A DNA stretch of 64,000 nt, from the NCBI GenBank assembly GCA_051294375.1, contig CM119267.1:18330992-18394991 (forward strand). The letters are read 5' to 3'. Position 1 is the stretch's first letter; each line of letters starts with the position of its first letter. Positions 6,911-48,937 of the stretch are shown in pieces. A program made the translations under genes and the position numbers. Source of the stretch: Paraspadella gotoi (lineage: Eukaryota > Animalia > Chaetognatha). Under the pieces are notes generated by a model, which saw only the letters and a list, made by a program, of their open reading frames with translations, ran no database searches and was not told the origin of the DNA.

Positions 6911-7102
6911 TATGATTATCCTTTTCTATATTAATTCTGATTTTTGAAGTGTAGTAATGAAACTTTTAAATAACGGGTACCAATAATTTGCGATTACATA
7001 ACGAAAGAATAAATTAAAATACAGGCAATACGATAAAAAAAATGTTAATTTCAAATAGCTGATTGACGTGAGATCTCATTGTCCTATATGCAACCAAGCT
7101 CA

Positions 7103-8777
7103 CTACGAATCAGAGACCGGGTATTTGGGCAGCTCCGCTTTATCCCTGGAGGCGTCGCCACCAATTCCGTTTTCAACATCCTTTCCGCCACATCCGGCTT
7201 CTTCCAATCTGATGATCCGCCTTCGCTTGACGAAATGTTCGACCCTGTCCTCGAGACTCTCGCAAAGCGGGCGCTCAAACAAGGGTTTGTGCTTTCGCGA
7301 CTTGCTGCCGCTGACGAGGGCGCGGTGGGGTCGAGAAACGGCGTCCAAGCGAGAGGACATCGATCCCTCCTCATTTCCCGAGCGCTCCTCGACGGCCGCT
7401 TTCGCTTTGAAGGCCGCCAGCTCCAAGGCCTGAACGCACAGCGCTGACTTGACGGAGAGTTCGACGGAAAGTTTCTGGTAGTGAAGAACGAGGTCAACGA
7501 GTGCCTCAGCGTCGGCGACCCACTCGGCTACGGCGGGAAACTCGCAAGAGTACAGATTAAGCGGAAAGTCCGCAGCCATGTTATACTGCGGCTTACGAGG
7601 GTGATTCGCCACGTCGAGCAGCTTGGAAATCGCCACGGGAGGCTCCAGTCGTTCGCCGACGAGAAACAAGAGGGCGACGATACATCGAATCTGATGCCAG
7701 AGAAAACCAGAACCCGTGACGCATAACTGGCAAAGCTGGAAAAACGTTTAAAGTTGAGATATAAAATTAACTCGATAATAAAAGCTCATCCAATCTTTAC
7801 CTCCATTCCACTCTGCTGCAGCAACCGGGACTTAAAATGAAACGTCGACTCGAGAGTCGATACGTCAACAGAGTCGATTCTACGGACAAAGGTTGTGATG
7901 CCGTTGCCCACATCCATTTTGCAAACGTTGCGAAAATCGTGTTCACCAACAAGGAGCTTACCGGCTTCGGCCATCAAGTCAAGATTGAGATTTCCTAAGA
8001 CAGATAGAGAAAATTATGCAAGAGGTTTTTCTCATTTAGCATTGCTAACATTTTTTTTAAAATGCTGTCGCTCAGGTCAAACGCCGTCGTCGTACCTTTA
8101 GGGAAAAAGTAGGTGTAAACTCTTTTGTTGCAGTCGAACCTGGCGCTGAAGTCTGGCTCGACCGGCGTCCACCCCAGGACTCGAATGTCTCGCGGAAGAA
8201 CTTTGTTTAGGATGTGGGCGTAACGAATCTCTTCTTTCGGCATGTCCGTAGCTCCGGAGCTGGCGGCGCCGTTAGACCGCGCGGACGTTGGAATCAATCC
8301 CACTCCAGCGTCGAGATTCGATCTCAAGTCGATAGAGACGACCTGACCCAGGGCGCTAACTCCTTTGTCCGTGCGTCCGCATCGGTGATAGTTTGAAGTC
8401 TCTCGCGACTCAATGAGGCGGGTTCGTTCGAGGGCCTCGAAGAGGGCCGACTCGACCGTATTGGTCGTATTGTCCTGGACCACGTAGCCCTGCCAGTCCC
8501 AGCCGAAGTAGGCGACGTGGAGGGCTACGTGTCGCTTGTTGTATCGGGAAAAGTCGAACGGTTTCCTTTTTTGAGAAGACGATGTCGACGATGCGCCTTC
8601 CGAATTACCATCGGGTCGAGAGTCCCCGCCTTCGGCGCGATTCCGCTTCGCCAAAATATTTTTGAGATTAAGGTTGGCCGCTTCGAGTTTTCGAATTTTT
8701 TCGACCAGTTCGTCTTTGGAAAGTTGATTAAGGTCGACGTCTGGGAGAGACTTGACCCGTGACACAGGATGCGTCAT
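7103..8777 (-). CDS. PUS3: tRNA pseudouridine 38/39 synthase (TruA family)
   Basis: RHVALHVAYFGWDWQG, RCGRTDKGVSA, FSARF, GEHDFRNVCKMD, FLWHQIRC, KPQYNMA. Three exons. The ATG directly follows a T-run and CAG. Confidence 0.95.
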
Positions 8778-8946
8778 CTGAAAAAAAAAAATTGTCAAAA
8801 TTCAGTAAAAAAAGGAATTGATACTCTTTTTTACTACGATGTATGGTTATAATAACAAAATATAATAACAAAATAAGCGAACCACGGCCGGAAACAAAAT
8901 CTTATATTATCTCATGTATCCCCCCTAGCCCATAAAATTCCCTCGA

Positions 8947-10065
8947 TCATGTGTCGCACGTTTCGGCTTCGGCCAGCAGCTTCAACCAATAATCGAATTG
9001 CCTATTCTGCCAAGTCCTCCAAAAACGGGAGAGGGCGGCGAAGTCGAGAGTATGAAGAGTCGCCGGCGAGCCGTCCTCGTAGCAGACGACGATCAAAGCC
9101 CGCTGAATAGAGCGAAGGCGTTCGTCGAGCCCGAGGGTCTGCGCGATCGCGGGAATCGAATCGAAACTAAGATCGTGATTGAGGGCGCCAACGTAAGCAG
9201 CCGCTTGAACCGGAGCATCGTACAATGAGGACAACGTGAGTTTCGGTTTGGCCGACGTCTTCCACTCGACCAGAGTCAACGCTCCTAATTTGCGAGCATT
9301 GGAGGGAAAGACTGATTATTCGACTGGTTCCGTAAAAAAAAAACCCGAAACTGAATGACGCACCATCCATCACCAAAAGGGAGTCGATCCTTCCCGAGTA
9401 ACGAAGCACCGGGTGAGAAATGGGGCTCTCGCCGAGAATTAATTCGTCCACGCGATCCAGAACCGGACGAGCGCTACGGAAAAAGGCCGACTGGATCAGC
9501 GACGCCGCCGACTCTTCCATCGGTACTCGCGTCTTCAGAAAATCGTGGATATTTTTATGGAAAGAACTGCCGCGCGAGAGAGTGTCTCGCTGAAGAACGG
9601 CGAACCCGTCTTCACCCAATTCCTTTATTTTCTTCTTCTTCCAGGCGAGCAACCTGAGGATAAGGATAAGGAAAGCGCGGGATATTAGGAAAAGGCTAAA
9701 TCCCTCCAAAAGCTAAAAATCCAAGCAAATTTTAAGCGGATTTATAATCTCAACTGATTGGCATTTAAAGACATTAACCTGAAAAAAGCTTGTTCATCCA
9801 TCGTTTTACTCATAACGGTAGTGACGGAAGGGAATTTTTTCGTTGCAGATATAATATCTGGTATTTTAGTTCGAAAATCGGATTCGCTAGGCAAAAGTCC
9901 GATGTCAAAAATGGTTTTCAGAGTTTTTTCCAGGGACGGAACCTCCGACGTGGAAGTGGAGAACGATTTTCGGTGGACGAGTTTGAATTTAAAACGAGGG
10001 ACGGGAAATCGATTCATCAAGATCAACAGTGTTTTCGTGCAAGGAGTCAATTCGGAGCAAATCAT
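8947..10065 (-). CDS. MGME1: Mitochondrial genome maintenance exonuclease 1
   Basis: PSVTTVM, RGSSFH, YSGRID, LVEWKTSAKPK and YDAPVQAAAYVGALN PD-(D/E)xK motifs across three exons. The start could instead be 10017. Confidence 0.9.
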
Positions 10066-10463
10066 TGCAAAAAATTATACTAGTAGTAATCGAAGAAACA
10101 TAAATAAAATTTAAAACTTGAAAAATTAGTGTACTGTGGAAATCGATATGTTGGACATAAACAATATAATTCCTTTGGCGAAAGGAAAATGCGTCTAAAA
10201 CCCGACAACTTAATCAGCCTAAAAATAGTTTTTTTAAAAAATATATTAGGCCACAACTGGTGGTGGTCCGAGTCAGAGAAAAGTCAAAAACTTTGAATCA
10301 TTTATCTTCCTGTTTTTTCTTGAATGTCTTGAGCCCTTTTTTTCGGGCACGCTTTCCGCTTACCACCTTACCTGCTAGAGGAACACGATATGCATTTATT
10401 CCCAGAAAATCTTGAGGTTGGAACGAGACATACCTTTGAGACCAATGAGACTCGACTGCAACG

Positions 10464-11380
10464 TCAACGCTCCCTGCAACAAAACAATAATTGAGGGCAA
10501 AAAGCGATCAATTGTGGAAAGGAGATCGACGCCGATGGATACCTGACCGCTCGAATCCTGTTCCGCTGAAATATAACGTCTTCTTTTGTAAAGGCTGATT
10601 TTAAAAATGTGAACGGGAATGATAACGAAATTAGGATCACTGTATTGACACGGGCACGAGGACACACCCGGATGAGGACGATGAGTCCCTTTCACGAAAA
10701 TGTCCGGGGCGAGCGTCCGTACGATTTCCGAACCCCATCCCTGCCATTGTCGGCGGTTGAGGCACAGCTTTGCGGTTCACGCCTTCCCAACCGCGATGCA
10801 AATTACAAAATAATTTAGTCCCAATTGCTTAAAAACCAATCACTACCTTCCGTGTCACTTGTCTCAAAAACGTTAACGTTTCGCGTCGCTTGAACCTCCT
10901 GGCGCCATTGCGTCTTTAGGAACAATTAAAAACTCGACGATTTTTTTTTTTTTGGCTCATTGTTGAAGAATTTCATCACCTCCTTTTCTTTCTCTTTAAG
11001 CGTTTTGTATGGAAGAAAGTCTTCGTGCTCGCAGTGTGGGCCCGTAATACGCTGACGCACCTGGGGCCTCTCCGCGTATAAGTACAGGTAAACGGACAAC
11101 ATCATGCAGCCCATTAAAACGGTCGTCAGGCAAATAACCTAGCCCCCCAAAAAAAAAATTTTTTAAGTAAAAAAGTGTAATTAGTTTTAAATGGAAAAGA
11201 AAAGTATTACCAATTTATTCATTGGGTACATGACTGCGTTCACGTCCACGAGGCCTTTCAATAACGGTGCAAAAATAAAGAAAAACATTCATTTAGGTAA
11301 TTACAAACTAAATTGCGTAAAGTTGTAACGATTTCTATAAATAATAAGTATGGCCACGTGGGCTTACCCCAGTGGGTCAT
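10464..11380 (-). CDS. Small multi-exon single-pass membrane protein, family unknown
   Basis: Hand-spliced MTHWG|LVDVNAVMYPMNKL|VICLTTVLMGCMMLSVYLYLYAERPQ followed by short basic exons. The 3' exon structure is ambiguous. Confidence 0.5.
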
Positions 11381-11554
11381 TTAGTAGCATGGTCGCGAGG
11401 GAAGCCGGCGACTGACTGACTCTCTCTTTTCCTCTCTCTCTTTCCTGCGCATTCTCTCTTCAGTCTCTCACGATCACTATTTGACATGATTTGACATGAA
11501 AATTTGCAAATTACTTGTTTCACTATTTTCTATTTTTATATTTTATGAAGTATT

Positions 11555-14500
11555 ATATTATAAATGATAATTTTTCCTCTTCATAACTGGTGACCCCGAG
11601 TTTATAAATCTTTAAATATATAAATAGATATATGAACGACTTGAATGTGTTTATGGGAGTTAGGTCGAAAGAAAAGTGGGTACAATGCTAAAAAATAAAG
11701 ATTTTTGACTGACGAGATAAGCTTTCAAAAAATAGAGGTACGCACCAATATTTTGACCAAGGAGAAAACCACAGAATGAAAATCCTATGCTTTGAAACTT
11801 CCAATGATATAAACCTGAACCTTTCACTCTGATTTTGACGCTATCAAAATCAATTCCAAATACCGAATTTTGTTCAACCTAAGATGAAAAATCAAACATC
11901 AGTTCAAATGATAGCAATTACAAAGCAAAAAAAGTTACCAAAAAGTTACGATAGGTTTCCGTCAATTGTGAGACAAATTCAAAGTTGGTCCGATTATTTA
12001 CTTCATAGAAAAACAAAAGTTGGTGATCATTTTGACCAAAAGAATCTATATCATCTTCTAGTAATCCCAACCGAGACATGTCCTAAAATAAAACGCTCTG
12101 AAATAGCCCCAAAACACTTATTGGGAAGATTTTTTTTCATGTACAGCAATTGCGGGTCACCGTTGAAACAAGGATGTGTAAAGACATGAGCAAACTTAAT
12201 GTAATTTTAAATGATGGTCGGAATAGATTTATTTTATATATATGTATGTAATATCTATTTTAAAAATATCACTTGGAATTTGTAGTTAAAAATATATGCA
12301 CATACCTTATACGTAATTTAGTCGGCTATATCCAGGATTACTCCATTAAATATATTAATTCCTTAACCTTTTAAGATCTAAAAGCCTAATTAACATGAGA
12401 GAAACTAATCATATTTTTTAACCTAATTGCAAGTAATAAACTAGGAATTATGACAATTAAATCATTAATTATTTAGCTATTAATTGAACCACAAATAAAC
12501 ATGATCATTTACTAATGTGAAATAATAATATTAAACCTTTAAGGTAATAGAATAAAAATTTTTCAAAGCTTAATAAGAACACGACAATATGCAAATGAGA
12601 ATGAGGAACTCAATCTCATTTCAGACAATTCACAAATTAATCTGCTACACAAGCACCGAGTATATTTTTTCATTATGAGATAACTGTGCTATAAGCAAGA
12701 ACAATTTTGCCAAATATTTCGTCATCAGGGGAAAAAAGACAGCAACAGATTAAAAATAGGAAATAATCAAACTTACAATTTAAAATATATGACAAAATAT
12801 TTGGCAATATTGTTCTTGCTTTTACTATTAAGTTATAGCACAGTTATCTCATAATGAAAAACTACTTAATATCAACTAATTATTTTGCTTTCAAAAACTT
12901 ATTTGATAGTTTTATCAAATCGTCTTCCTCAGAGGTGTATTAAAATTACAGAAAAAAAAAAGAGAAAAATATTGTACAGGGAGTCGAATGGCTTTTTAAA
13001 GGTAAATGTTTTAATACCATCATTTTCTCTCTTATGGTCGAACATTTCAGTTGAAAAGGTTTCCAATCTTCATTCGAAGTTTGCTCCAAAACAATAGTCG
13101 AGACCTGTCAGCAAATCAAAAAATTGTCCTATATAATATATGAGACCTAAACAGCTAACAAAGTCTCTTACTTGCTGAATACAATCGGATTGCTCCTCTA
13201 AAAAACCCTTAGTTAAACCGTAGCAATCGCCACCAAGTTCAAAACATTTCTTTCGCGATGTATAGTTTTTACAACCTCTGAAGCATAAAATATGAATTCA
13301 AAATTATTGTATAAATTCCCATCTTTTCCCAAAAGTCATACGACGGTATCATAAAATTTTAAGAAAGCATATCTACGTGCGGCAGCAGAAACTGTTCTTT
13401 AAGCAAAGGCGTATGTAGCATGCATTCATGGAACAATTACTCTCCCTGTGTTCTAATATTTACTCGAGTAATTCAAAAGCGGAGACGACTGACCTGCACA
13501 AAGGACACTGAGTAGAGGCTACTTTAAAACTCGATTTAGCCGAATGGCCGTAATTTGGTCTGTGAAATTGGATAGCCTTGGACTTTTTGGGGGGTTTGGC
13601 GTTGTAAATATTAGTGGTCCTGGGAATGGCGCGACCTTCGTCCGATGGCGGACGATAATTTTCCGGAAGAGTCGCGAAAGGCGTGCTGTTTAGCGAACAG
13701 TGAAAAGCTAAAAAGAAACGTGTATTCGAGCCGAGTAGTTTCAACTTAAGTTTGCCTAAATTCGGGCAAAGAGACCACACGGTTTTCGCATTCCAGCTTA
13801 AGGTTCGTTAAGCATCCGTGCCTTACGATGAAGCTGTTGTGCCCCTCCTTAAACACATTTTGGAAAAAAAAAACATTACTGATTACTTAACCGGGATAAC
13901 GAATTTCGAAAACTTACCTGGCATTGCATCGGAAGTAAAGGAAAAACGGAGTAACCTGCTACTATTCCTTTTGCATATCTATTTTGAGTAATGTTGAAAG
14001 TGACGTCTTCTTCGAAAAAACGACCCAACTAAAACCCAAACTATGATGTAATTTTTTTTAATAAGAGCCTCATAAGCCAAACCCCCTCCCACCTTGGGTA
14101 AGGTAGTTATTCTCGCCCCATTAAACTTATTAAAAATATTTAAGTAAAAAACTGGCTGACTCTCCAATGCGGCAGCGAGTTGACTTTTTGGAATTAACAT
14201 TTGCTTCTGACTTTTTAGGATGAAACGCATAGTATCGCCAAGATCAGCAGTAATCGATTTCTTGTAAAGTACTATTCGCCTATTGAAATAAAAAAAATTA
14301 TCAAGAACAATGTTAGATGTGAACATACCCCTTCCTTAACCCACTTGACTCCGCACTCGAAGTACATAATGGCGGGAGGAGGCATCTCCGTTTTCGAGAC
14401 ATTAGGTTGCGGCGGTTTAATGTCAATGGTCAACTCTTCAGAGGCAAACCACCGTTCGGAAGTGAAATTTACGCCGTTTAACTTATTTAAGACCTCTTTA

Positions 14501-17500
14501 TATTTTTCGAAAGGCTTTTCCGTAGGCCTAACCAATTTTTGTCCGGGCAGAACTAGAAAACTCAAAGCATTTGAGCGCGTGAGCAAAACCAAGTTCCAAA
14601 AGGGTTTTAGATCGGAGCAATTCGCCGGAGGAACCGCGTTGGGATCAGGCGCAATCGCGTAACTGGTGTTATTGCCGTTGGTCGAGAGCGTTAATGTGCA
14701 ATTTGCTTTTTTGAAATTCACGGGCCATCGAGAAGGAGCAAGAGCGATGGCACGCGCGTACGCGAAAAAACCACTGGACGATTTTTGGGTCTTTAGTCTG
14801 CAGAAAATAAAAATATCAACTAAAACCAATTATTAGTTTTAATTTTTATAATATATCGTATTACTTTCACAATAAATTTCAAGCAACGCATACATACATA
14901 GTGTAACTACCGTAAACGTTTAACCAAGGAATTCAAATGTTTAATGTCGATGCTACTAATGAGACTTTTCAAAGAATTACATTTCGTTACCAGTAAAGAA
15001 CAATCTGAATAACTTGAAATCGTAAAATCAGTCCGTGATCTTGGAATAACAATGAAATATTAAGCACGACCTACTTGAACGTTGCCTCGATGAAAAACTC
15101 CCCGAGAGGTTTCGTAGGATTAAGATCAGATCTGTTGCCGGAGGATTCGTTGCCCGAGGATTTTATGCCGGAGGATTCGTTGCCTGACGAGTTGTGGCCG
15201 GAGGAAATGAAGATAATATTATTTTTCTCTAAGAGACTGGAGCTGCTTGGAAAGGCGCCTTCGATGAACTCGTGCAACAAAACTCGTCTCCTGGTTAACC
15301 TCTCCACAAGGATTCGCGACTTTTTTTCGGCCTTGACGCCGCCGCAATTTTTCGCGTTTGAGGCGCAGCGACTGCGAAAGTCGAAAATCTTGTACCACTC
15401 TGCACGGAAAAGAGGGGGAACGCTAAATCATTGTTTAACGCCCCAATGACTAATGATTATCTTATCACGTGATTGTATTTTCAGTTGACGTGAATACGTG
15501 ATGCTACATAGACAATATGTCTCCACGACCAGTGGTCGTCGTCGACCACATATCAAGATAAACCATTTTGTACTTAGTACTTAAGTGTGATGCTTCCGCG
15601 CAACATCGTCTCTTGGCCGAAAACCATCATAATAAATAGAATTAAAAAACCATCATAATAAATAGAATTAACGAAAATGATTCCGAATTAATATAGTTAT
15701 GACCTAATTATTGGTTAAGATTGTTTAATTATAGTAGTAATTATTGTTATTGCAGCATGCAAACAAATTCTATCTATATGAAAGATAAAAATAAATAAGA
15801 AATAAAAAAGACTTTCTTTCTATTTAAAGTCATTTCTACTAGTGCGAATCCATAAAAACTTGATTTCAACCTCAAACATACTTTCTTACCCACAAAATTG
15901 TACCTTAATACACCCATCCAATCTACGAATAATTGGAGTTTAAAAATAAGGGGAGAAACAGACACGCGGATATCATTCTCTTACACAATTTTTCTTAATT
16001 CGATTTTCTTAAATGAATGACCAAGACATGGGGGGCGACCAACAGACTAATTATTATACAGGGAGGTCCAGCTCTAATGGAACTACAGCACAAAAATGGT
16101 TGGGTTAATTTTACTTTCGCCGACCGGGATTAGAGGGTTTAGGGTTGAGGGTGGTTTAACTTTTTTATTTCACATAGGAACATGTTTCGGCCTTATGTAT
16201 AAGCCTTCACCAGCGTTTGATAAATCAGACAAATTCTTCTCTTAACATTAAGTCAGAGAGAGAGAGAGAGAGAGAGATTGAGAGAGAGAGACAGAGAGAG
16301 AGAGAGACAGAGAGAGAGAGAGACAGAGAGAGAGATAAAGCTTCCAACAAAGGTTGAGAAAAGGACAGTGGTCAGATTGAGGACAGGTGAAGGTAAGGAG
16401 AGAGAAGAAGAGGAAAGTGGTTGAAATGTGAATGGTGAAAATTTGAAGAGACAGAGAGAGAGAAAATATTTACATTTTGTAATGTACAACAAAGATAAAG
16501 AAATAAACAATTCCATAACAATAAGTAAACTTAATGCTTAAACTAGTAGATTTGACTGAGAATATTTTAACTAGTTAATAAATTTTAATTAAAGTTAAAT
16601 TTAGAATTTTTACAACGGTTTAGTGAATGGGGTTTTAGGGTAATTTGGAAATAATTTATTTTATGGTAATCCCAATAGAGCTGGACCTCCCTATATTAAA
16701 AGTATAAAAAATACCCTTGAGCTTTATCTTTAGTAAGCCTGGAGCCTTCTTGAAGGTTATAAATCCGCCCACGCGTTCGACAGATTTCGGATTTATTAGC
16801 GGCAAAGGTATTAAATACTGAAAGCGAAGGTATGATTACCAATGTATCTTTATTTAGATAGTGACTTTTAAAAATGATTACCGCAGTATATGTTTCGTTT
16901 CCGGTTAAATGTAGTTCTCCGACCATTTGGATTGGATCGATGTTTTTAGCAGAGTATAGAATGCTTTTATTTCTTTTTATTATATCGAGTGCTGCAAGAA
17001 AATCAACATACGACCACTTATTCCTTGAAATGGAGCCCCCGCAAAAAATTATGTATTCAAAAGTTTAACCGACCGATGATAAGATATCCACTTTGCCATG
17101 GTTGAAAATTGAAGGCGCCGATTCGGTAATTTTCATTGAAAGGTTCTAATCGCTTCAAAGAGAAGAAGTTTCCCGCGTCGATGGATTCCCAAAGGCGAAA
17201 ATTTGTTAGCACATAGATGGATCCGGATTTCTGGTTCGCACCGACAAACGCCAATTTTTCCCCCTCGACAAAATCGAAGAGAACGGGCGCGAACTCTGGG
17301 CGGGATCGGAGCCGCAAAGCAACAACGCCCTGACCAAAGGAGAATGCGGTAAAAGCAAAACTGTAGGTATGCGTCAAAACTCAACGCGAGCGAACCTCCA
17401 CGGTATCGTCCGAGTACTTCAACTTGCCAAGATCGGGAATGACGCGGTGAACAACAAGGCAATATTTTCCATTAGATTTTTGGTATAGAAATATAACGTC

Positions 17501-20144: not shown

Positions 20145-20413
20145 TTCAAAAGCGCCTAGTGAAAAAATGAAAATTTACCAGTACGTTTTTTTACTCAGGA
20201 AGCTAATAACATACACAGGCGCAAAATATAAACAATAAGCCTTCATTTTTATTGTTACAACGGGAATACGTAGACGTGAGGTATATACAAATTCAAGGGA
20301 TTATCTTTTAACGCTGCTCATCTTCAGCAGTCCAAATTTATTGAGAGAAGTGACAAAAGATGCATTGACTAGGATGGTCTTCCTCATCCAACGCCGTGCG
20401 GCGGCGTCGCCTC

Positions 20414-32470: not shown

Positions 32471-33679
<1,209 letters not shown>

Positions 33680-35949: not shown

Positions 35950-36125
35950 TTTTTGTCTTTTTTTTAATATTTCAATGTTTTTGTTAAAACTACGTGGATG
36001 TTAAAGATGGAGTCAGTCTTTCGTATAAAACGTATGGAAGCAGATTTGGCCCTTTAACAAAAATTTTTCGGCTAATAAATAATTGATTCCGCGTCGTACA
36101 TCAACAAATAATAATTAAAATTGCC

Positions 36126-37089
36126 CTAATAACGATAGTACCAGTAACATATTACGACGACCATTAAAGTACTTAAAACCTCTAAAATTCTTGAGAGAAG
36201 CGAAGGAGGATTATTTTTTCGGTACTTTTTTTGCCGAATGTTCTTTAGGTATTCTTGAATCTTTTCATGGTCTCTGATAAGGGGTAATTATAAAAAATTA
36301 TTCTATAATGACGTTATTACCTTAAACAGAGTTTTACCCAGATGATTTCATTTCCTGCACGACGTGCTCATTGTAGTAGTTGTGAAAATCTTCAAGTCCT
36401 CTCTGATTTTCTCTCTTTACAAACACAGTTCGATTCGCTTTCACTCTTTTCCGATCGTGGGCGGCTTCCTGAAAGGTGCGCAAATCTTCGAAAGTGAGGT
36501 CCTCGTGGGGATGGGACTTTTTCGTCTTGGGCTTATAGTCACGAAACGACGAAATGCCGCGATCGTACTCGCGTCGCTTGTCTTCGTTTCCTAATATCTG
36601 GGGCGAGGAGAGGCAAGTGGCAAGTTTAAAACGGAGAAAATAATTAAAATTGCACACGAAGGTTTTAAGAAATGTGACAACCGAGAGTCAACAAGGATTA
36701 TTCCTTACAGTTAGTCCCCAACCTTTGTCAACCTGGTATGCTTTTGAAATATCGACGAACTTTTCCACTCCGACTGGGTCCTTGCAGACGTCGGGATGGT
36801 AGATTTTGGATAATCTAAAGTAGGCAGCTTTGATTTGATCCGGGTCGGCATTCGGCGACAAACCCAGCGCATCGTACAGTTCGCTCTGTCTGACGGCATA
36901 TGTCCGTCGGAAATCGGTCACCCACTTCGATCGACGACAGTCGCTCTTCAGTCCGAAGAGAGCGTGGCTAAAAGTTGCCGCACTAAACGCCCAACACGAC
37001 CCGTGACGTGAAGTACGGTACAATTTTAAAGAGCGACCCGTAAAAAGTAGCGACCCAGATGCCGTCGCAGATTTCGCAATAATCCACAT
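36126..37089 (-). CDS. DNAJC30: Mitochondrial J-domain protein with a C-terminal TM helix
   Basis: Presequence, LYDALG...IKAAYFRLSKIYHPD...ISKAYQ|ILGNEDKRREYDRG. The last exon ends in hydrophobic VLSTLMVVVICYWYYRY. Confidence 0.75.
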
Positions 37090-37192
37090 AATTTCTTCGT
37101 CGCTCAATGTTCATCTTATAAGAAAATCATTGTAACTGCGTACGGGATGAAGATATTGCGATAAAAAAAGTTACACGCGCACAGGGTTTCGT

Positions 37193-38506
37193 TCAGCAGT
37201 ATTTGAAGCCGGTATCAGCGAATATAACTCTTGGGTCGATCTTCTTCGCCTCCCGAGAAGAGTTGACGTTTGATCTCTCCAAGTTTGGTTTTCGAGTCCG
37301 TCCCTCGTGGTTTTCATTTTGATTCGGGGAAGATGCTAACATGGATTCTCCGACGAGCATCCGATCGATTCGCATAGAGGTCATCGCCACGCGCCTGCTC
37401 ACGTTCCGGTTTTCGTTGGTCGTAGTCCCCATCCCTAACAACATCACGCGGAGAAGGCTGCCCTCCATGCGACGCCAAGAGTGACAGGTCGACTCGAAAT
37501 CGTTGGGAAGAATTTCCTCGATGACCGACAGAATGGCTTCGAACATTTCGAAATAGAGCGAAGCCTCTTTGTGTCGCTTCTGAAGCGCTGCCCCGATCCG
37601 CAGCGCCAGCTGTTCCCACTTTTGAAGTGGACCCGCACCGTTTATTCGGGCTCGCAGGTTTTCGTAGGACATACCCGATTTTGACGAGATAGGTGCTTTC
37701 AGTGATCTCGAAGAACCAGGCGGCATTACATTTGACCCTACGGGATTCACTGAAAGTCCCGAAGCAGCAACGCCACTGGACGCGGGTTGTAGCAAAGCGC
37801 CACTCCGTGTACTCTCGCCGGGCTGCAGACCGACGCTCGACGAGGCGTTCTGACCGGCAGCCAATTTCGTCCTCTTAGGTTGGCTGGAATTAAAATTGTC
37901 CTGGAACCGGAAACCTTCCCTGACAGAAAAATTGCTCGTTTCGCTGGAAGAGTTGCAAGGGGATCCTTCCTCCGACCGAATAGCGTTTGTATTAGAATCA
38001 ATCCTCTTGTATTCAAACCCGAAATCTTCGAGACTTTTGAAAATCAGATCGATGATGACGAACAATCTCTTGGCCCTCTCGGGAGCCCATTCGTCTTGAC
38101 CATGATGCGTCACGTGATAATCCGCGTAGTAGTTGACCACCTTGTCCTCAAAGTCCGAATGGGCCTTGGCCCTTTTCCAAACACGTATGACGCTGTCAAC
38201 GTCCGCTCGAGTCATCGGCGATTGCGTCACGACTTCCTGCATGGCCATGAACCGAGGAAGATCGCGCTCGACCACGCGTGTCTCCTTAATTGACTGACGA
38301 GACTTTCTGGAACCCAAGGACAATCTATCGCTCGTAATCGTCGCGTAGGTTTCCAGGGTGGGACGACGCTGCCCATCCAGGCTACCCGCGTACGAAGGCA
38401 CGTTTTTTTGGTCCTCGGGAGAGGATTGTGAAGCGTAGCAACAGCATTTACCCGGGCCGTTGCTCATAAAGTTTCGTCCCATCGTTTTCGACTCGGTCGT
38501 TCCCAT
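37193..38506 (-). CDS. Intronless 437-aa acylation-motif protein with a split globin-like fold
   Basis: MGTTES start and a CCC motif. Globin A-, E-, F-, G- and H-like helices are separated by a Ser-rich insert. Confidence 0.7.
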   Translation of the reverse strand: MGTTESKTMGRNFMSNGPGKCCCYASQSSPEDQKNVPSYAGSLDGQRRPTLETYATITSDRLSLGSRKSRQSIKETRVVERDLPRFMAMQEVVTQSPMTRADVDSVIRVWKRAKAHSDFEDKVVNYYADYHVTHHGQDEWAPERAKRLFVIIDLIFKSLEDFGFEYKRIDSNTNAIRSEEGSPCNSSSETSNFSVREGFRFQDNFNSSQPKRTKLAAGQNASSSVGLQPGESTRSGALLQPASSGVAASGLSVNPVGSNVMPPGSSRSLKAPISSKSGMSYENLRARINGAGPLQKWEQLALRIGAALQKRHKEASLYFEMFEAILSVIEEILPNDFESTCHSWRRMEGSLLRVMLLGMGTTTNENRNVSRRVAMTSMRIDRMLVGESMLASSPNQNENHEGRTRKPNLERSNVNSSREAKKIDPRVIFADTGFKYC

Positions 38507-38804
38507 CTCCTGGCTGTCCTTATATTACATGCTAACTAGCGCCTTGCCCCGCAAAGAAAACCAATTAATATAAAATATAGATAATATTATGCAAGTCAGT
38601 TTCATACTATTACTAACTCCCTCAGATCCCGGGAACGAAGTTGAGACAAATAAAAAGTATTCGTAGTATTTTTTATATCAACATCATAAAACAAAAAAAA
38701 TTGCTAAATTAGCAATAAACAGTAGGAATAAAACGAAGTAGTCAATGCATTGAAGAATGATTTAAAAACAAATTCAGAGTATGTGGCTAAAAAAAATTCA
38801 TATT

Positions 38805-40080
38805 TCAGTACAATTTCACAGTAGGAATTTTTGTTTTTGAATCGATAACTGCCTCTTTGACTTCGTGCTTGGCATTGAACTTTCGTTTGAGACATCCGTG
38901 GTAGAAGCCCAATCCATAATTTCGAATGAATTTACTGACGCCCGGCACCCCGAGTTTCGGGTGACGCTCGAAAAATCTGTCACACCCGGCGACGAACCAG
39001 CCGTTAACTTGCGGACCTTTCGGGCCTGGATAGCATAGGTAACAACAAATTGGTTTAGAGAAGATTTTGAGTCACCTGAGCAGACCGTTGTTCTAACATG
39101 AAAAAACCTTGATAAGGACAAGTTTTAGCGAGACTTTTAGCCAACCGATAGATGATCTTTTTAACGATCTTTCGGGGCGCACTGGAAAAGACCAGGACTT
39201 CCTCGATGTTAAGGCAGGAAAAGTTTTCACGAATCCATTTGATGTTTTCGCAGGCGACGTACAAGGATCTGAAGATAATTCAGGGGGAAATAAAAAAAAC
39301 TCAAATATTGGAACCAACGGCAAGCACAGACCTGTGAGAGTGGCAAAAAGCCGAAAACTTAATGCGGCCATCGGGTTGATGATCAAAGACTAAAAGACCA
39401 AGAGCCTGGGCGCAGGTCGCGTGAAAGTAGACGTCGCAATCGTCATCGTCGCATCGGCGACAACATCCAATTCCTCGCTTAATATAAAATTTAAAAAATA
39501 TATTTTTTTTGCTCTCTAAACAGCCTTTCTCTAGGCTGCCACAGGCGTTCATTGCACAACAGTTTTACCTTATCACAAATTGAGCAAGTTCTTTGACTGT
39601 ATTTAGGAGTTATCACGCCTTCCATGGTTGCTGGTTTCTCATATATTACTTCTGGAATGTATAACGAACAGATAACGTGCGCCCACCCCCCCGAGGCGAC
39701 ACTAGCAAAAAACGGGAAAAACTTTTATTATGTTATCCCGCCCAATATTTATTTATGCAATTGTCGATTTACCTGGTGAAAATTCCCGATTTCATGGGAC
39801 ATAAGAGACAAGCTTCTTTTGCGGCTCCCGACCGACATTTCCGACAAATCCACGAGTCATTTCGGTGCTCTTTGTCGGGCGCCTCGCCGCAGCAAGAGCC
39901 GTGTACAACAACCCCACAGTTTCCGCAAGTCTTTAAGGGTTCCTCGGCACTGTGAAGTGAACCCATTTCAGAACAGACGCTACACGGCGTCGGCTTCGGT
40001 AACAGTTCCGTCTCTGAGTCTTCAATGTACGGGGACGATGTATGGAGACCGTTTTGAGTTAAGGCGGCGAGGGGTTTCAT
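38805..40080 (-). CDS. PHD-zinc knuckle-PHD (PZP) protein of the AF10/BRPF/JADE/PHF14 type
   Basis: CSVC...CGNCGVVVHGSC...WICRKC, CLLCPMKSG, WAHVICSLYIPEV, CSIC, FHATCAQ, FCHSH. Extra 5' exons are possible at about 41396-41600. Confidence 0.85.
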
Positions 40081-40434
40081 GTTTTCACAATTTTCTACGA
40101 GAGAAATTTTTAAAGAAAAACTAGTTGTCCACTTTGATACGTCGTAATCGACTTTTTTAAAATTGTATTGTATTTATGTCACAACGATTTATTTTTAAAA
40201 TTATTTTTTATTATTATTTATTTATTATTATTATTATTTGTTATTATTATTATTATTATTCCTTTAGCTAATTTTTCCAAGTCTACTTATTTATCTTTGT
40301 TGTACATTGCCAAATGTATCGATTTCTCTCTCTCTCCCTCAGTCACATTTTCACCATTTCACAAAACTTACTCCTTCCCTGTCTTTACCTTTACCTGTTT
40401 TCACATCTGACCTTTACTCAATTCTTTGTTGGAA

Positions 40435-40474
<40 letters not shown>

Positions 40475-41208
40475 CCTAACTTATGTTAGGGGTAGCCCCA
40501 CTCAATGGGGTGCGGCAAAAATTTGAAATGATTACATGCTCAAATGAAAATTTATACATTTTTAAGTATACTTTCAATGGACAAAAAAATTCTTATATGG
40601 CTTTATACCCAAATAATTATAATTATTTAATATTTATTTATAGATAGGAAAGGCCAATTTTTTTTTTAATATTGAATTTTAACACCAGATTCAGATAGCT
40701 CATAAAAAGTTGTCTGCACAAAGTATTATTCTTTTTTAAATATTTTCATGATAATCGAGTCAAAAATAAGAAAAACCATGAAAAATCGTCATCATCATCT
40801 TTCGAAGATTTTATCAGTTTTTTATATTTTCACTTTGTGTATATACTTTCAATTTCGTTTCGTTTCGAATCTAGGAAGAAAAACAATTCTTATTTGTTTT
40901 GTTTCAACGAATTTTATTTGATTTTATTGTTTTTCTCCCTATATTTTTCACTCAAAAAACGTAGGAATTTTTAAAAGCTGTAATTATATTTCATGTTTAA
41001 TTTTTTTTGCTCTATCAGAATCCATCAAAAAAATTTAAGTTTTCAAAAAATTATTTTTATAATGCAAAAAAATATAAGTAATATTTAATGTATTAATCAA
41101 GACGTATAATGTAAATTTTTAGACAACTAAAAAAACTAAAATAGTCGAAATTTTATATTATCTATTGAGTTGGTCCCTACTTATGTCTCTAAAAAAATTG
41201 TCAATACC

Positions 41209-41254
41209 AAACGCTGATGAAGACTCGCAAAAACAGAGTCGAAACATGTCCGTC
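41209..41254 (+). ncRNA. Minimal type I hammerhead ribozyme, intact core
   Basis: acg-CTGATGA-A-GACTC/GAGTC-GAAA-CATG-TC-cgt. Confidence 0.82.
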
Positions 41255-41784
41255 TTGTTAATTGTTAATTCAAAATTAAATCGTTGTAAAATCTAACAAA
41301 ATAAACCTTTGTTTTTCGCTAATCCCAAAAAACAACGAAAAGAGAGAAAATAACACAAAATGTATTCATGTCATAAAATATTGATTCCATTCGCACCTTT
41401 ATAAAATTCAAAATGCCCCGCTTTCAAGTCTATAATCACATGCAATATATCGTTCCCAGTCCATGCACTGATCTATGTCGGATCCTTACCAACGCTTTTC
41501 CATGTGCATGACGCAAAAATTGCGTGGCCGCCAGATTCCAAACCTTACCGTCAATTAAGAATCAGCCAGCCTCTAACTTATCGACGCAAACCTAAAATCA
41601 TAACCGGTCACATGCAATAGAACAAGTTTGAGCAAACAATGTCGGATCTGCCTACGATAATTAGCGGTAATCAGCTAATCAGATCATCACAGACGAATGA
41701 AACCCTGAAACAGAGATGATAAATGACGATAATTCTTTCAATTTGTGTTCATAACAGATCGTACCATACCAAACCAATGGCTGC

Positions 41785-42315
41785 GCATTAAAGCGTAGCA
41801 AAAATATTAAAATCAAGTAAAATCAAAAATCACGAACAGGCTTGTACCTGTGAACATTTTCAAATAAAAAAAAAAAATTTTATTTTTCAATTTTCGCATA
41901 CTCACCATAGAAAATGTCAAAATTTTAAAATGTTTTTTTCTTATTTTTAAAAGCAGATTCAAATACATTACAAAAAGTTGATAAAAGGAAATAACTCTTT
42001 TTAGAAAATTATTTATTAAGTGGGTCAAAATCCTAAAAAAACTTATTATTAACCTATATTGAAATTTTAGTATAAAAAATATAGTTTTTTTAAATTTTTG
42101 GCTAACTTATAAAATAATTTTTATCAACTTTTTATAAGGAATTCGTATCTGCTTTCAAAACTAAGAAAACATTACTTTAAAATTTTAACATTTTCTATGC
42201 GAAAATTGAGAAATATAAATTTTTTTTTATATATATCAATGTTCTTTGGTCCAAGACTGTTCATGATTAACTGTTAGAATTTTGATCTGCAACCTTCACT
42301 ACGCCTTACTGCGTA
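41785..42315. mobile_element. Degenerate foldback/MITE of about 530 bp
   Basis: Mirror arms, e.g. catagaaaatgtcaaaattttaaa / tttaaaattttaacattttctatg and aaaaagttgataaaa / ttttatcaactttt. Confidence 0.65.
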
Positions 42316-43360
42316 TATACATGTAAATCGCTTGCAATGGATTAAACTGAACTTTTACTATGGTACAAACGCATAATTTTTTCAACTCGCACCATTTTTT
42401 CAACTCAACTATTTAGTATTTAATCAATTAACTAATTAAAACTTTTATAAGTAAGCATAAATAATAAAATTTTAAGTCAACGTGACTTTGGTTTTTTCAT
42501 GCAAACTCATTTCCACTCCTCTATTCAATCTAAACTTTATATTCTGCTCAATCACACACTTTCCTACTTACACACAAAATTATCATCTCATTCTATCCAT
42601 CCAATTATGAATAATTTGAGTAATTATGGGTTAAAATTAATAAAAATATTCAAGAAAATGTGATTTATATTTTTTTTCTATTTTAAATAATAGACACATT
42701 TGAATCCGACAAAGTTTTAATTAGATAACCAGTCTGGGTGTCATTCTGTTCGTTTTTCCAAGCTCTTTTTAACTAAAAAAGTTTTATTTAAAAAAAAAAA
42801 TTTTCGCCCGAGCCAGGGGTATTGAAGAGTCAAAATATGGAAATTCACCATTTTTAGTATTTTTTAGCTTTTTCCAGTTAATTTTTTTAATATAATAATC
42901 TTTAATCAAGTTAATTACTTCTGATAATGATTTTAATTTATCCTATTTAACTGTTTTTAAAACATTCATAAAAAAATATTAGTTTTTAGCTTAAGCCAAG
43001 GGTGTTGAAGAGCTAAAATGTTTAAATATTTTTTTTTAATATTTATAAATTATAATTTATTTTTTTAAAGATAACTTATTTTAATCATGGTAATGAAAAT
43101 ATTTGATATCTTTAAATGCTTTGAGGCTTACCACAGCTTTAAGTTAATTAATTTAATAATGTTTTTTCAAACTGAAAAACCCAAAAACTTCTATGATCCA
43201 AAGCAATTAATTTTAATTTTTAATCACAAAATATAATTGTTGCAAGATGAAATTATTTAAATAATATTCAGATATTACTATTGTATTAATCCTTTCAGTT
43301 TCGTTGAGTTGAGATTTAAGCAAAGTTCGAAATTAGTTTCTTCAACGATTTTTATTTTGT

Positions 43361-43403
43361 ACGGACATGTTTCGACTCTCTTTTCGAGTCTTCATCAGCG
43401 TTA
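43361..43403 (-). ncRNA. Minimal type I hammerhead ribozyme, intact core
   Basis: acg-CTGATGA-A-GACTC/GAGTC-GAAA-CATG-TC-cgt on the minus strand, followed on the plus strand by (GA)n. Confidence 0.82.
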
Positions 43404-43432
43404 ATAAATATTTTACAAATTTGTGCAAAAGA

Positions 43433-43483
<51 letters not shown>

Positions 43484-44582
43484 AGGAGAGAGAGAGAGAA
43501 ACAGAGAGAGACAAAATAATACATTGTGCAATGTACAACCAGGAATAAATTTAAACTAATAGTGAATTTAACAATTAATCTAATAATAAATAGATAGTAA
43601 TGAAAGGAAAGAAAGTTTTTAAATGTGAAATGATACATTTTTTGTGAGGGATAGATAAGTGACTGTTAAAGTGAATAATTAAGAATTATGATAGAGCTCC
43701 AAATGATAGATATTACTATAAAAAAAAATTATTTACTTTATACTATATAAATATAATTTTATTTAAAAAATAATTTAAAAAATGATATCTGCATATAAAT
43801 TTTGTACGGATAAGAGTAATAGTTTGGTTTAACGCTATATACAAATATTTTGTTATTAAATAAAATAATTTTTCTTTAATATACAATAATTTATAAATTA
43901 ATTATTGCTTTTTACTTTTTTCATTAAATAATTGTTTAACAAAGAAGTTTTGTTTTTTTCACAATCTAAAAACACAAGGAAAAGAAAATTATGATTTATA
44001 AAAGATTCATTAAAAATATCTACCTTTTATAGTCCGATTCATATATTTAAATTAATTCATAAATTCATTTAGATACTATTTTACTATATAATAATATTGG
44101 TAATTGTTAATTAATTTACTTGATTAGCAAATTATTAACAAGTTTAAATTATAAACATTGTGTTGAACTTGTTTATTGCATTTTTAGATTTAGAAAAACC
44201 TTTTTATGTTAACAAAAAAATTTAAGGAATTTGTTAACAATTTTGTTTTTATCGTTGTTAACAAATTCATTAAATTTTCTTTGTAATCTCTAACCCATAA
44301 AACTTTTCCCATCTATAACTTTCCAGTTGGGTATAACTACAACAACCTTGTTGATCGTAACGCTAACTTTTACTTATTCAATCTCAAATGTTAAAATTAA
44401 ACACTAACCCTTAACCTAATTTTGCTAAAATTGCCATAACTAGAACATTAGTTTCAGTTCGTTAACAAAATTATTATTTTCTATGCGATATCGCAAAAAA
44501 TCTGGATAGTGGATATCATTTTAATAATTATATCTTTGTTATAACAATTTCATTATATGATTGTTGTGATTCTTTGTGATCA

Positions 44583-44625
44583 ATGCTGATGAAGACTCTC
44601 AACCACAGAGTCGAAACCTGTCCCT
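44583..44625 (+). ncRNA. Minimal hammerhead motif
   Basis: CTGATGA-A-GACTCT/AGAGTC-GAAA-CCTG-TC. Confidence 0.7.
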
Positions 44626-45358
44626 ATGAAATAAAAATTCGTTGTTACACATTAAAAATCTGTCATTATATGATTAAATTTATGAATTGCTTTGTTTTTA
44701 AGATGAATCTTTAAAAAAAAAACTTTTTAGAAATAGGTCACCATTTTTTTAATGCTTTTAATTATAAAATATTAATTAACTATGTTAACTTAAAAAAAAC
44801 ATTTAAAGTTTTCAAATATTTTTATTATCATGATTAAAATATGTAATCCTTAAAAAAATAGCAAATTATTATTTGAAAATATTAAAAAAGACAATTTAGA
44901 AATTTTAGCTCTTTAACACCCCTGGCTTAAGCCCTAAACTAATATTTTTTGTGAATGAATGTTTTAAAAATAGTTAAATATGATAAATTAAAAGCATTAT
45001 CATTAGTAATTAACTTGATTAATGATAATTATATTAAAAAAATTACTGAAAAAAGCTAAAAAATACTCATAAAAGGTGAAATTCCATATTTTGGCTCTTT
45101 AACACCCCTGGCTCGGGCGAAAAAGTTTTTTTTCTTAAATAAAACTTTTTTAGTTAAAAAGAGCTTTGAAAAACGAACAGAATGACACCGAGACTGGTTG
45201 TTTAGTTAAAACATTGTCGGATTCAAATGTGTCTATTAACTAATTTCCACTCGCACGATTTCTTCAAAACTTTATATCCAGGTTCGTCACACACTTTCCC
45301 ACCCACACACAAAATTTCATCACAATCTATCCATCCAATTATTATTAATGAGTGTAAT

Positions 45359-45727
45359 TATGGGTTAAAATTAGAGAATTGACAAAGTTTTTGTTTGCAA
45401 CGAATTTTATTTTTAATTGAACAGACATGTTTCGACTAGCTTTACAAGCCTTCATCGGCGTTTTGACAGTTTGGTTTGAAATTTGTTCATAAGAAGGGGG
45501 AGAGAGAGAGATAGTAGGGTAAAAGTTTTCCAACAAAGTGGTGAGACAGAATAGTGGTCAGATGAGAGGACAGGTCAAGGTGAGGACAGAGTGAAGGCTT
45601 GTAAAGCAAGTCGAAACATGTGTGTTCAATTAAAAATAAAATTCGTTGCAAACAAAAACTTTGTCAATTCTCTAATCACTACTAACAACGAAAAAGAAAG
45701 AATTACTTCAATATGGGTTAAAATTAG
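45359..45727. mobile_element. Penelope-derived short insertion with inverted hammerhead-bearing ends
   Basis: About 45370-45453 is mirrored at 45592-45675. A tatgggttaaaattag direct repeat lies on both sides. Confidence 0.75.
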
Positions 45728-45822
45728 TAAAAAGATTTAAGTAAAAGTGACTTATATTTTTTTCATTTAAACTCACCCACACACAAAAATTCATTCCAAT
45801 CCAACCATCCAATCACGAGTAA

Positions 45823-47066
45823 TTAGAGTTTTTTGCTAAAGGGGGACGGAGAAACGGACATCATTTTTTTTGCATAATTTTTGCGCGTCAAAAATCCCCG
45901 AAATTTCCCGTCATTGTCAGGGTCAGGAGTGTTCATCGCACGATATAAGCTCTCCAGGGGAATCCACGATATGGGGCTTTCCGGCCAAGTGTCTAATAGC
46001 AACACATAATATCTCCGGCGTTGTCCTTCGTCGCCACAAGATCGTTTGGCAACCGCCACGATGACGCTGAAATGGCCGCAAAATGGAGGTTGATCCAAAC
46101 TTTTCATATCGTAGTTCACGATCAAGGATCCATTTTCACTGATCTGTGAGACCAAAGCCTCCATGAACATGTGTTCCGAAAATGCAGGGACACTATTTGG
46201 TTCGTTACGACAGAGATTGTATTTCGCTCCCAAGAGTGTACAGACTTGGTCCAGGGTCATGCCATTTGGAATTATATCTACTACCTCCTGAGAGACTTGA
46301 GGAAGCAAATCTTCTTCGCTCATTTCCCCCATATATTTCAGTTCATGGTCCCCTATTTTTTGCGACAACATTGCCGCGTGAGCTTGTGAGCTCACCATAC
46401 CACAGGTCGAACGACCGATTTGTTTTTTGAAGCACGAACCCCAGTCGGATTTAGATGCAACTATAATCTCGCTGTTTGAGGAGAATCGTAATCACAAATG
46501 CTTCAGATAATCAGTTAACGATTACTATCTTAAAAATAAAATTGATTCTCACTGTTGTCCGTCCTCACCCTCGTCTCAATGGCTGAGCAGGCTAAATAAT
46601 ATAGTTTCAACCTGGGTATCCCGGTTCTGTCTTAAATGTGACGGAGACGGTTTAAATATGCTAGTCACAGGAGGCGGTCACTGAGGGTCCCTAGCCCCTA
46701 CGCCAGTTGGTGAGATACCCTGTGCCCCGAGTAACACAGGCAATCCTCCCATTGCCATAGCTCTGTTTTGCGAGGAGTTGTGTCATCCTATCAAAATACA
46801 TTAATACTGCAACTGCGATTACAAGAAAGGAATTATAAGACTGATTAAAAGCCGTTAAATATTATGTCCACCAGCTGAGATTAAGTAACGTAATAAGTAA
46901 CATATGTCATTTGTGATTTTGACTCGAAATAATTTGCTGTTTCCTGAGCTTCCACGAAACTTGAAGGAACCACATTTAGGCCGAAATCCTCAGTACAATT
47001 TTTCAAGACACCCCTGGCCTCTAGCCTTTTTAAATTATTCACCACAACTTTTAAATATTCGGCCAT
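45823..47066 (-). CDS. Phytochelatin synthase-like protein (catalytic domain only)
   Basis: Last exon (from about 46472) has FKKQIGRSTCG (Cys), GMTLDQV, GHFS (His), LLDT (Asp) and WIPLESLYRAMNTPD...RGFL. The 5' exon joins are uncertain. Confidence 0.82.
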
Positions 47067-47193
47067 TTCAATGGAGTTATTTTTTAAAGATTCTTTCTTG
47101 TATTTTTGAGTATTACTCTAACTGTAGGTAAAGCCAAAAAAGAATATTAAAAAACGTTAAGTTTATATACCAAGACATATAATCTCAATAACA

Positions 47194-48812
47194 TTAAGGT
47201 CGACAAAGATCGTGATACGGTTTTAACGTTCTCAAATCACGAAAAACGGGAACGGATCCGTCGGCGGATTGGATGATTTTATGACAAGCGAAGCAAGGAT
47301 CATAAAACAGTTTCTCATACGAGTTCAACCACATAAGAAAAGATTTGAGAGCGAGTTCGGGGTTGTTGGGCAAATAGAAGTGGATCATCGCCGCCGCGGC
47401 GTGATCGGATATTCGCCTAAAAACCTGGTGGCGCGATTTGGTCCAAACTGCGTCGAGCGACGCCTCTTGATCGCCGACGCCAAGTTCGAAATCGTGCGCT
47501 TGAAGTTCACAGAATCCGAGAACATTCACCCATTCGATGATGAATCCTTCGGAAAAAAAAATCCAGGGAAGAAAGTGAGTTTTCGATACAAAGACGAAAT
47601 CCTAAATACCAAAATTCTATCTCACCTCGTAAAATAACGTAAACCTTGAGAGTCCTTGCAAGCGTGATGTTGAGTAAGGCGGGGTTTCCCAAAGGGCGTG
47701 ACAGCTTTATGGTCATGGTATTTTTAAAGTTTCGGCTCAGGTCGGCGACGAACTGATCGATAGCCGCAGGCGACGCCGACACTTGCTGCGCCGTAGGACC
47801 TTTGACTTTTAAACGTTTGGCGGCTTGTGGACCCGATTCCCGTTGATTCGAGGAGGATGAGCTCGCCGAAGTTGATCGTCGCGTGTTGTTTTGGCTCAAA
47901 ACCGTGCAGGAAACGCTAGAGAACTCGTGAACTTTGTCTAACCATCGATGAGAGTGGTACAACTGGGTCCATAATTTGTGTTTGTCTCCTATTGCGCAAA
48001 AGTCAAAAGCGGTATAAACAAAATTCCGAGAGAAAAAGACGACGAATAAGCAGAATCACACAAATCACACCAAAAAAATCCATAAAACTCTTACCAACGT
48101 TAACCGAATCCAATGGAAGTAGAAACGACGCCGTTCTATTGTAATGATGCTGCGGAGCTTGATCCTGGATCAGATTAACGTGATGCTCAACCTCAGACAT
48201 TGTATCGCCAATCTGGCCGAGAGAGAGAAGACGAAAAAAATATCACTGGGAAACAGAAACTCAAAATTATCGAAAAAACATCAAAACTTTCGTTATTCTA
48301 TTATTTTTACTTTTTAAAGGCTAAACCTGCTTTAAATCTTTTTTCATTTCCTCCACAAAAGCCTTCTCTTTTTCTCCATTTGAGACTGACGAAGCCTCTA
48401 AAGTCTGAGCCTCCGCGCCCACGGCGGTGGACGTTGAGGCGTCGACGGCGGGCGTCTCTCGCTTCACTCCGTCTGCCAAACGTTGAAAGGTAAGGTTAAC
48501 CGCGCTTCGCAGTTTTTGAACGAGTTTGAGCGACTTGTGCATGGCCTGACATAAGGATAAGGAATCTGAAATGAAAAAATTCAGGACGGCGGAAAAAAAA
48601 TTAGAGAAACGAACCTGGATAGATTCGTTATCGATCCGAAGAGGAGCGGTAGCTCCTTGATGAGAGGCGTATGGCGGAGGTGGGGCATTAGGATGCCCGG
48701 CCTGTGGCGTTCCAGCTGCTTGCGAGGCACCGGACGTCTGACTTCCAGGTCCCCATTGTTGTTGGCCGGACGCATGATTAGCCGTTGCAGTTCCGCTAGT
48801 CGATTCCGCCAT
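47194..48812 (-). CDS. MED27: Mediator subunit 27
   Basis: LRSAV..FQRLADG, WLDKVHEFS, SRHQVFRRISDHA, LKSFLMWLNSYEKLFYDPCFACHK, PVFRDLRT..PYHDLC. Confidence 0.95.
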
Positions 48813-48937
48813 TTTAAAATCTTTAGTTAACTGAAATATAGAATAAAATAAACAGAAAAAGACAAGCAAGGCCGCGAAGTGACTCAAATAACCGTGGGCC
48901 GGAAAAAATTGCCCAACGCCTAAGCCGTCAATAATGA

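Follow-up and report, generated by a model that had tools for sequence, protein, structure and literature searches.

Introduction

Operons that are resolved by a spliced leader (SL), with internal 3' ends set close to the downstream acceptor, are already known from Ciona and from arrow worms. One operon of the arrow worm Spadella cephaloptera has its poly(A) site 3 nucleotides (nt) from the next acceptor, in the one case mapped (PMC2481426). About half of the genes of Paraspadella gotoi are trans-spliced and 18% lie in operons, the longest of which holds nine genes by a 250-bp rule; arrow worms are also described as having no gene-body methylation and many duplicated genes (PMC12460157). Here we analyze a 64-kb stretch of P. 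gotoi DNA (contig CM119267.1, positions 18,330,992 to 18,394,991; 64,000 nt, referred to as the window), in which 22 genes share the minus strand, and the acceptor-like sites that lie in the gaps between them.

Other trans-splicing systems differ in how they treat the poly(A) signal. In tunicates, 16 of 18 operons of Ciona intestinalis lack AATAAA, as do operons of Oikopleura, and the mechanism of operon-internal 3'-end formation without AAUAAA is left open (PMC1488885); one leader type serves all operon positions (PMC1488885, PMC7986045). In Leishmania major, the position of the upstream poly(A) site, about 500–600 nt away, is dictated by the acceptor (PMC4538839). Caenorhabditis elegans has two arrangements: SL1-type operons contain AATAAA and have little or no spacer, while SL2-type operons have spacers of about 100 nt and a dedicated leader (PMC1488885, PMC7668243).

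The locus resembles the described arrow-worm operons in its co-oriented housekeeping genes, its very short gaps and an acceptor near the upstream 3' end. Its coding CpG observed/expected ratio of 1.28 and the presence of a second SmD1 fit the published absence of gene-body methylation and abundance of duplicates. What stands out is the length of the co-oriented run, 17–22 genes against the published maximum of nine in arrow worms, although a limit of 250 nt from stop to start would leave no run here longer than four genes. We think it probable that this array is transcribed as long precursors that are cut by a spliced leader at unpaired AGs, with each upstream 3' end forming some 40–100 nt from the AG, often without a hexamer.

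Results

A single strand carries every gene of the window

The array divides into two blocks:

1..40094, minus strand: co-oriented block of 17 genes, from the PHD gene to the partial gene at the window end; gaps of 103–705 nt where both ends are defined
45823..64000, minus strand: co-oriented block of five genes (Tudor-like, partial; TADA2B; NDC80; MED27; phytochelatin-synthase-like)
40096..45822, no strand: repeat-filled interval of 5.7 kb without T/A skew, the sole candidate break in the array
Gene order, all minus strand: Tudor-like (partial), TADA2B, NDC80, MED27, phytochelatin-synthase-like, PHD gene, 437-amino-acid (aa) open reading frame (ORF), DnaJ, SmD1, MRPL35-like, UBE2D
Gene order continued, all minus strand: CNBP, gene X, RRM/Gly-rich gene, CHK2, TMEM87, CatSper-beta, MGME1-like, PUS3, ANKLE1, CPSF6, partial gene

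Short GT-AG introns interrupt genes in this stretch of animal DNA. The minus strand carries 22 of its 22 genes, an outcome with a chance of 5e-7 if orientations are independent, and none of the 95 plus-strand ORFs of at least 80 aa has a Pfam match. Orthologue names are assigned from Pfam domains and are presumptive, except for TMEM87 and PUS3; the labels Tudor-like, MRPL35-like and MGME1-like are presumptive names. In the literature searched, which was covered in part, we found no report of an animal one-strand array of 20 genes.

Stop-to-start gaps measure 103–1051 nt with a median of 318 nt (n = 20; gene X measured to its 5' exon); 7 of 21 are at most 250 nt long and 10 of 21 at most 300 nt. 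Short-gapped neighbours on one strand, one of the operon features that we tested for, are therefore present. The sense strand is T-rich in 19 of 20 gaps, and the 5.7-kb interval is without this T richness. Long inverted repeats resembling miniature inverted-repeat transposable elements occur at 42683–45243 and 45370–45676, with arms of 191, 122 and 85 nt.

Spliced contigs cross the gaps

The contigs of five sequencing runs, X1–X5, skip CT..AC introns, and for this reason the runs were treated as RNA; none is recorded as such. Runs X2–X5 contain small shares of the region and were used for matching pieces only. The longest relevant contig joins six genes:

32181..40094, minus strand: six-gene spliced contig of 6344 nt from run X1, spanning the PHD gene, 437-aa ORF, DnaJ, SmD1, MRPL35-like gene and UBE2D, with introns out and five gaps in

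Among the gaps that this contig retains are 37090–37192 and 35950–36125; its first ~200 letters are unplaced. A second X1 contig, of 3844 nt, contains CHK2 and TMEM87 with their introns removed and the gap kept, and length arithmetic places its end at 20195. Because 22 genes lie on one strand and spliced contigs cross the short gaps, polycistronic transcription is likely.

The original prediction was that 3'-end formation at this locus may be coupled to downstream trans-splicing, and cis-splicing of the gap AGs to upstream exons would speak against it. All 11 X1 joints listed for 27135–38700 lie within genes or among the 5' exons of gene X, and none of the 11 links one gene's exon to the next gene's pre-ATG acceptor. 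Such cis-splicing is thus absent from X1 for the gaps covered; it was seen once, at 28981 in X4. In a wider set, 15 of 40 joints were examined.

The X4 contig, which links gene X 5' exons to 28980 before the RRM gene, and the ~200 unplaced letters heading the six-gene contig would both suit a different arrangement, in which leader exons common to several genes lie upstream and are joined in cis to the AGs by alternative splicing over a long unit, with no separate leader RNA. We regard this as highly improbable. The link comes from a single contig at depth 3.7 with no counterpart among the 11 X1 joints, the main contigs keep their gaps, donors are scarce in the gaps, and flatworms commonly use one acceptor in both cis and trans (PMC12582326).

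Acceptor-like sites precede start codons

To score acceptors, we built a matrix from 26 introns of the window (16 from RNA joints; 10 inferred from motifs and contig-length arithmetic, with one donor shifted by hand to keep the frame open). The leave-one-out scores of these introns range from -0.8 to 14.3. The following gap sites are the ones considered here, all on the minus strand:

6937, minus strand: CAG 26 nt before the ANKLE1 ATG (6910); score 6.8; 165 nt past the PUS3 stop
8778, minus strand: T-run CAG abutting the PUS3 ATG (8777; distance 0 nt); score 10.8; 168 nt past the MGME1-like stop
10134, minus strand: weak CAG 68 nt before the ATG of the MGME1-like gene; score 0.8; an AAG at 10117 scores higher, 4.4
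20156, minus strand: TAG with the CatSper-beta ATG 11 nt further on; the CHK2–TMEM87 contig is calculated to end 39 nt upstream (20195)
22734, minus strand: CAG in the gap from CHK2 to TMEM87; score 8.9; gap unspliced in the spliced contig (piece 22400–23415)
27225, minus strand: CAG 124 nt before the CHK2 ATG; AATAAA 26 nt downstream of the AG
28822, minus strand: CAG with the ATG of the RRM/Gly-rich gene 78 nt further on; score 7.4
28981, minus strand: top-scoring gap acceptor; score 12.7
31792, minus strand: AAG, a putative acceptor, with the CNBP ATG 26 nt further on; no AATAAA over the 678 nt from stop to AG
35950..36125, minus strand: 176-nt gap from DnaJ to SmD1 with weak AGs only (2.2 at 36018); by length arithmetic, the six-gene contig retains it
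37136, minus strand: CAG 56 nt past the 437-aa ORF stop, with the DnaJ ATG 46 nt further on; the six-gene contig retains this gap (piece 36733–39024)
47122, minus strand: CAG 71 nt past the MED27 stop and 55 nt before the phytochelatin-synthase-like ATG; score 5.3
48831, minus strand: CAG 106 nt past the NDC80 stop and 18 nt before the MED27 ATG; score 8.3

Seven of these positions (6937, 8778, 10134, 27225, 37136, 47122 and 48831) had been proposed as pyrimidine- or T-rich tracts ending in CAG just before a start codon. All seven are the G of a minus-strand CAG, and six score like real acceptors (4.2–10.8); 10134 is weak in that role. The claim that the stop-to-acceptor distance can be as short as about 55–70 nt is borne out by 37136 (56 nt) and 47122 (71 nt). 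The clearest site of the set is that of PUS3, whose start codon falls, in an alignment, at the initial Met of five homologues, so that the T-run CAG at 8778 does not lie within an ORF intron. Among the seven, RNA contigs were aligned to the regions of 27225 and 37136.

Across 21 gaps, the best AG in the last 150 nt exceeds shuffles in aggregate (Wilcoxon p = 0.01, Fisher p = 0.02). Counted over whole gaps, acceptors occur in 16 of 20 against 13.5 expected from shuffled gaps (P = 0.09), and a plain pyrimidine-plus-CAG rule finds 7 of 20 gaps against 3.8 expected (P = 0.06). The gaps hold fewer donor-like sites than expected on their sense strand, 3 against 10.7 (P = 0.004), and 17 against 17.3 on the antisense strand. 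The predicted lack of a convincing upstream donor in the gaps therefore holds beyond chance. Taken with the gaps left unspliced in contigs, the aggregate acceptor signal and the donor depletion amount to an unpaired 3' splice site before downstream starts, a second operon feature that we tested for.

If these were instead packed independent genes with short promoters of their own, the AGs would be chance or unused sites and the long contigs would be stitched from overlapping untranslated regions (UTRs) and read-through. Such genes would explain why individual acceptor scores are weak (3 of 21 significant) and why no leader was seen in the contig loose ends examined, and T-rich UTRs alone yield YAG-like sites (13.5 of 20 shuffled gaps pass). 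However, gaps of 103–127 nt would then need to accommodate both UTRs, 3' and 5', together with a promoter, the placement of 22 of 22 genes on one strand would go unexplained, and a T-run CAG directly abuts the true PUS3 ATG. We therefore consider independent genes quite unlikely.

Many junctions carry no poly(A) hexamer

Hexamers were counted in the 20 gaps other than the 5.7-kb interval. The six shortest of these (892 nt in total) had been noted to contain no AATAAA on the coding strand, and none does; this absence is at chance level, as shuffles give 1.3 (P(0) = 0.25). The broader statement that the gaps often lack AATAAA is partly right: 12 of 20 are without it, and 8 of 20 contain it against 5.8 expected. 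Pooled with ATTAAA, it reaches 17 against 16 expected, again chance level, and a hexamer and TGTA enrichment screen of the gaps returned nothing poly(A)-like beyond a slight AATAAA excess.

Seven of 16 putative acceptors have none of 18 hexamer variants within -110 to -10 nt. TATAAA lies at -41, -45 and -52 from three acceptors. AATAAA sits at -48 and -62 nt from two acceptor AGs; because of this placement, the canonical signal probably still acts at those junctions.

Contig ends approach the next AG closely. UBE2D RNA reaches 31841, 49 nt before the AG at 31792, and RRM-gene RNA reaches 27279, 54 nt before the AG at 27225, each in a low-depth contig. In both cases, the sequence between a point 60 nt above the contig end and the AG is free of all 12 hexamer variants sought. 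CNBP RNA reaches 98 nt before the next AG, with AATAAA at -48, and gene X RNA likewise reaches 98 nt before the next AG.

These data bear on whether the locus is resolved as C. elegans SL2-type operons are, with ordinary cleavage at AATAAA or a variant followed by leader addition downstream, the six empty gaps being a chance pick. AATAAA occurs in 8 of 20 gaps (13 copies against 7.1), two acceptors have it at -48 and -62, three have TATAAA at -41, -45 and -52, the six AATAAA-free gaps have P(0) = 0.25, and CPSF6 is encoded in the window; all of this would suit ordinary cleavage. Yet 7 of 16 acceptors lack a variant in the preceding 100 nt, the UBE2D and RRM RNAs run to ~50 nt from the AG with no hexamer left, AATAAA plus ATTAAA stands at chance (17 against 16), and the top of the enrichment list holds no further poly(A)-like hexamer. 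An SL2-type arrangement is, in our judgment, unlikely.

A possible leader remnant at 28822

One X2 contig (piece 28610–28821, letters 3–214 of the record) starts with two non-genomic letters directly after the CAG at 28822. Arrow-worm leaders end in AAA, not AG (PMC2481426), and a leader with such an end would leave a mismatch like this one. As a leader trace, the two unmatched letters prove nothing.

Individual genes

CatSper-beta (10299–20144, minus strand; Pfam CATSPERB_C, E = 2e-9) has housekeeping genes on both sides, separated by 269 nt from TMEM87 upstream and by 233 nt from the MGME1-like gene downstream. The latter has a single weak Pfam match (PDDEXK_1, E = 0.028), and ANKLE1 has the Pfam domains Ank, LEM and GIY-YIG. 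Gene X (28920–30790, minus strand) encodes ~130–140 aa without a Pfam match; its three spliced 5' exons lead to what appears to be its own coding exon at 29878 or, in one contig, to 28980 before the RRM gene. The 437-aa ORF (37193–38506, minus strand) is intronless and also has no Pfam match. It begins Met-Gly with a Cys triplet close to the N-terminus, and an Atlas search gave weak globin-like leads (0.85–0.86).

The frame of the phytochelatin-synthase-like gene ends within a repeat copy (45774–45880, minus strand) resembling NDC80 intron sequence near 57500. Because the frame stops inside this copy, the true end of the gene may lie further on. The second SmD1 was found in run X1 (35836–35911; depth 262 against 292), and 9 of its 9 listed differences fall at third codon positions; it is either a paralogue or another organism's copy.

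TMEM87 (20414–22561, minus strand) has only five introns, and its C-terminal 195 codons are intron-free. This C-terminal part has an intron in locus L031 of another animal, and the comparison indicates that the difference is an intron loss in TMEM87. Its protein is 85–87% identical to the four closest records and at most 68% identical to named animals. In a quick tree of 48 rows, it clades only with those four records (SH-aLRT 100), and the clade falls outside all of the cnidarians, deuterostomes, molluscs, other spiralians and arthropods sampled; named arrow worms, sponges, comb jellies, tunicates, rotifers and flatworms were absent from the tree. PUS3 relationships resemble those of TMEM87. 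A homoscleromorph sponge affinity was considered and dropped, since none is among the best matches listed; judged by sequence features alone, an arrow-worm affinity is somewhat more likely than not. A metagenome scan with a relative's TMEM87 returned 32 loci, none of them a close relative. Three transcript-like TMEM87 contigs from other animals (L001, L003, L004) share AAGAGA at their very start, which resembles the tail of a rotifer-type leader.

Discussion

The gene order, the sites, the donor depletion and the contig structure described above were observed directly. From them we infer leader addition, the poly(A) positions and the coupling of 3' ends to acceptors, as follows. The 22 genes would be transcribed into long polycistronic precursors, and the donor that is missing at the AG ahead of each start codon would come from a leader RNA. 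Cleavage and polyadenylation of the upstream mRNA would take place in the U-rich 40–100 nt before that AG. At many junctions no hexamer would be involved, and the acceptor's own branch point and pyrimidine tract may serve as the landmark; at some, cleavage would involve an AATAAA about 50–60 nt before the AG. The original prediction is partly supported. Gene order, donor depletion and the gap-keeping contigs favour operon-like co-transcription with unpaired acceptors, and the UBE2D-to-CNBP and RRM-to-CHK2 junctions fit hexamer-free ends near the next AG, where 3'-end formation may be coupled to trans-splicing.

Several observations weigh against leader-resolved precursors. Contigs may be stitched from overlapping molecules, and no single transcript is demonstrated. 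Gene X has cis-spliced 5' exons, and one X4 contig shows cis use of the acceptor 28981 in a gap (donor 30196 to 28980; depth 3.7). The acceptor signal is modest, with 3 of 21 gaps individually at p<0.05 and with 10134 a weak acceptor, and donor depletion is likewise expected in ordinary UTRs. AATAAA is slightly enriched in the gaps (13 copies against 7.1 expected; P = 0.03), and contig ends at depth 3–7 bound the 3' ends rather than fix them, giving upper bounds of 39, 49, 54, 98 and 98 nt. The window contains no leader-RNA gene recognizable by a degenerate arrow-worm leader pattern or by Rfam (0 matches each). Neither leader letters nor a poly(A) tail turned up among the loose ends examined in the assembled contigs (24 of 246 and 15 of 20). 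Assemblers can drop short branches such as leaders and tails, so their lack in contigs is not evidence of absence.

Leader-resolved precursors of this kind can be compared with each of the known systems. Tunicates (Ciona intestinalis, Oikopleura dioica; PMC1488885, PMC7986045) share the lack of AATAAA in most upstream cistrons. Ciona operons, however, have no intercistronic DNA and are mostly dicistronic, with up to seven genes, whereas spacing here is bounded at no more than 39–98 nt; no tunicate protein is among the best 120 matches listed. Trypanosomatids (Leishmania major, PMC4538839) share the long one-strand arrays. They trans-splice all genes, have nearly no introns and use no AAUAAA, while this locus has cis-introns, spacing below 100 nt and a slightly enriched AATAAA that is absent from 12 of 20 gaps and present in 8.

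C. elegans operons share short gaps resolved by a leader, but neither the SL1 type nor the SL2 type fits the hexamer-free junctions here. The originally suggested likeness to nematode SL1-type operons fails because those operons retain AATAAA (PMC1488885), which we found in the upstream cistron in none of the six short gaps.

It is tempting to speculate that the 17–22 unrelated genes over 40–64 kb, the sperm-channel gene included, form one unit on the trypanosome scale, in which most internal poly(A) sites are set by acceptors rather than by AAUAAA. We hold this larger proposal to be doubtful. The locus offers about 20 junctions with and without a hexamer in one array, and an RNA run from the same animal exists, so that raw reads can be used to test how operon-internal 3' ends form without AAUAAA. 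Should the array prove to be a single unit, operons in animals would be far longer than gap-based rules report, and the sperm-specific gene inside it would need post-transcriptional control.

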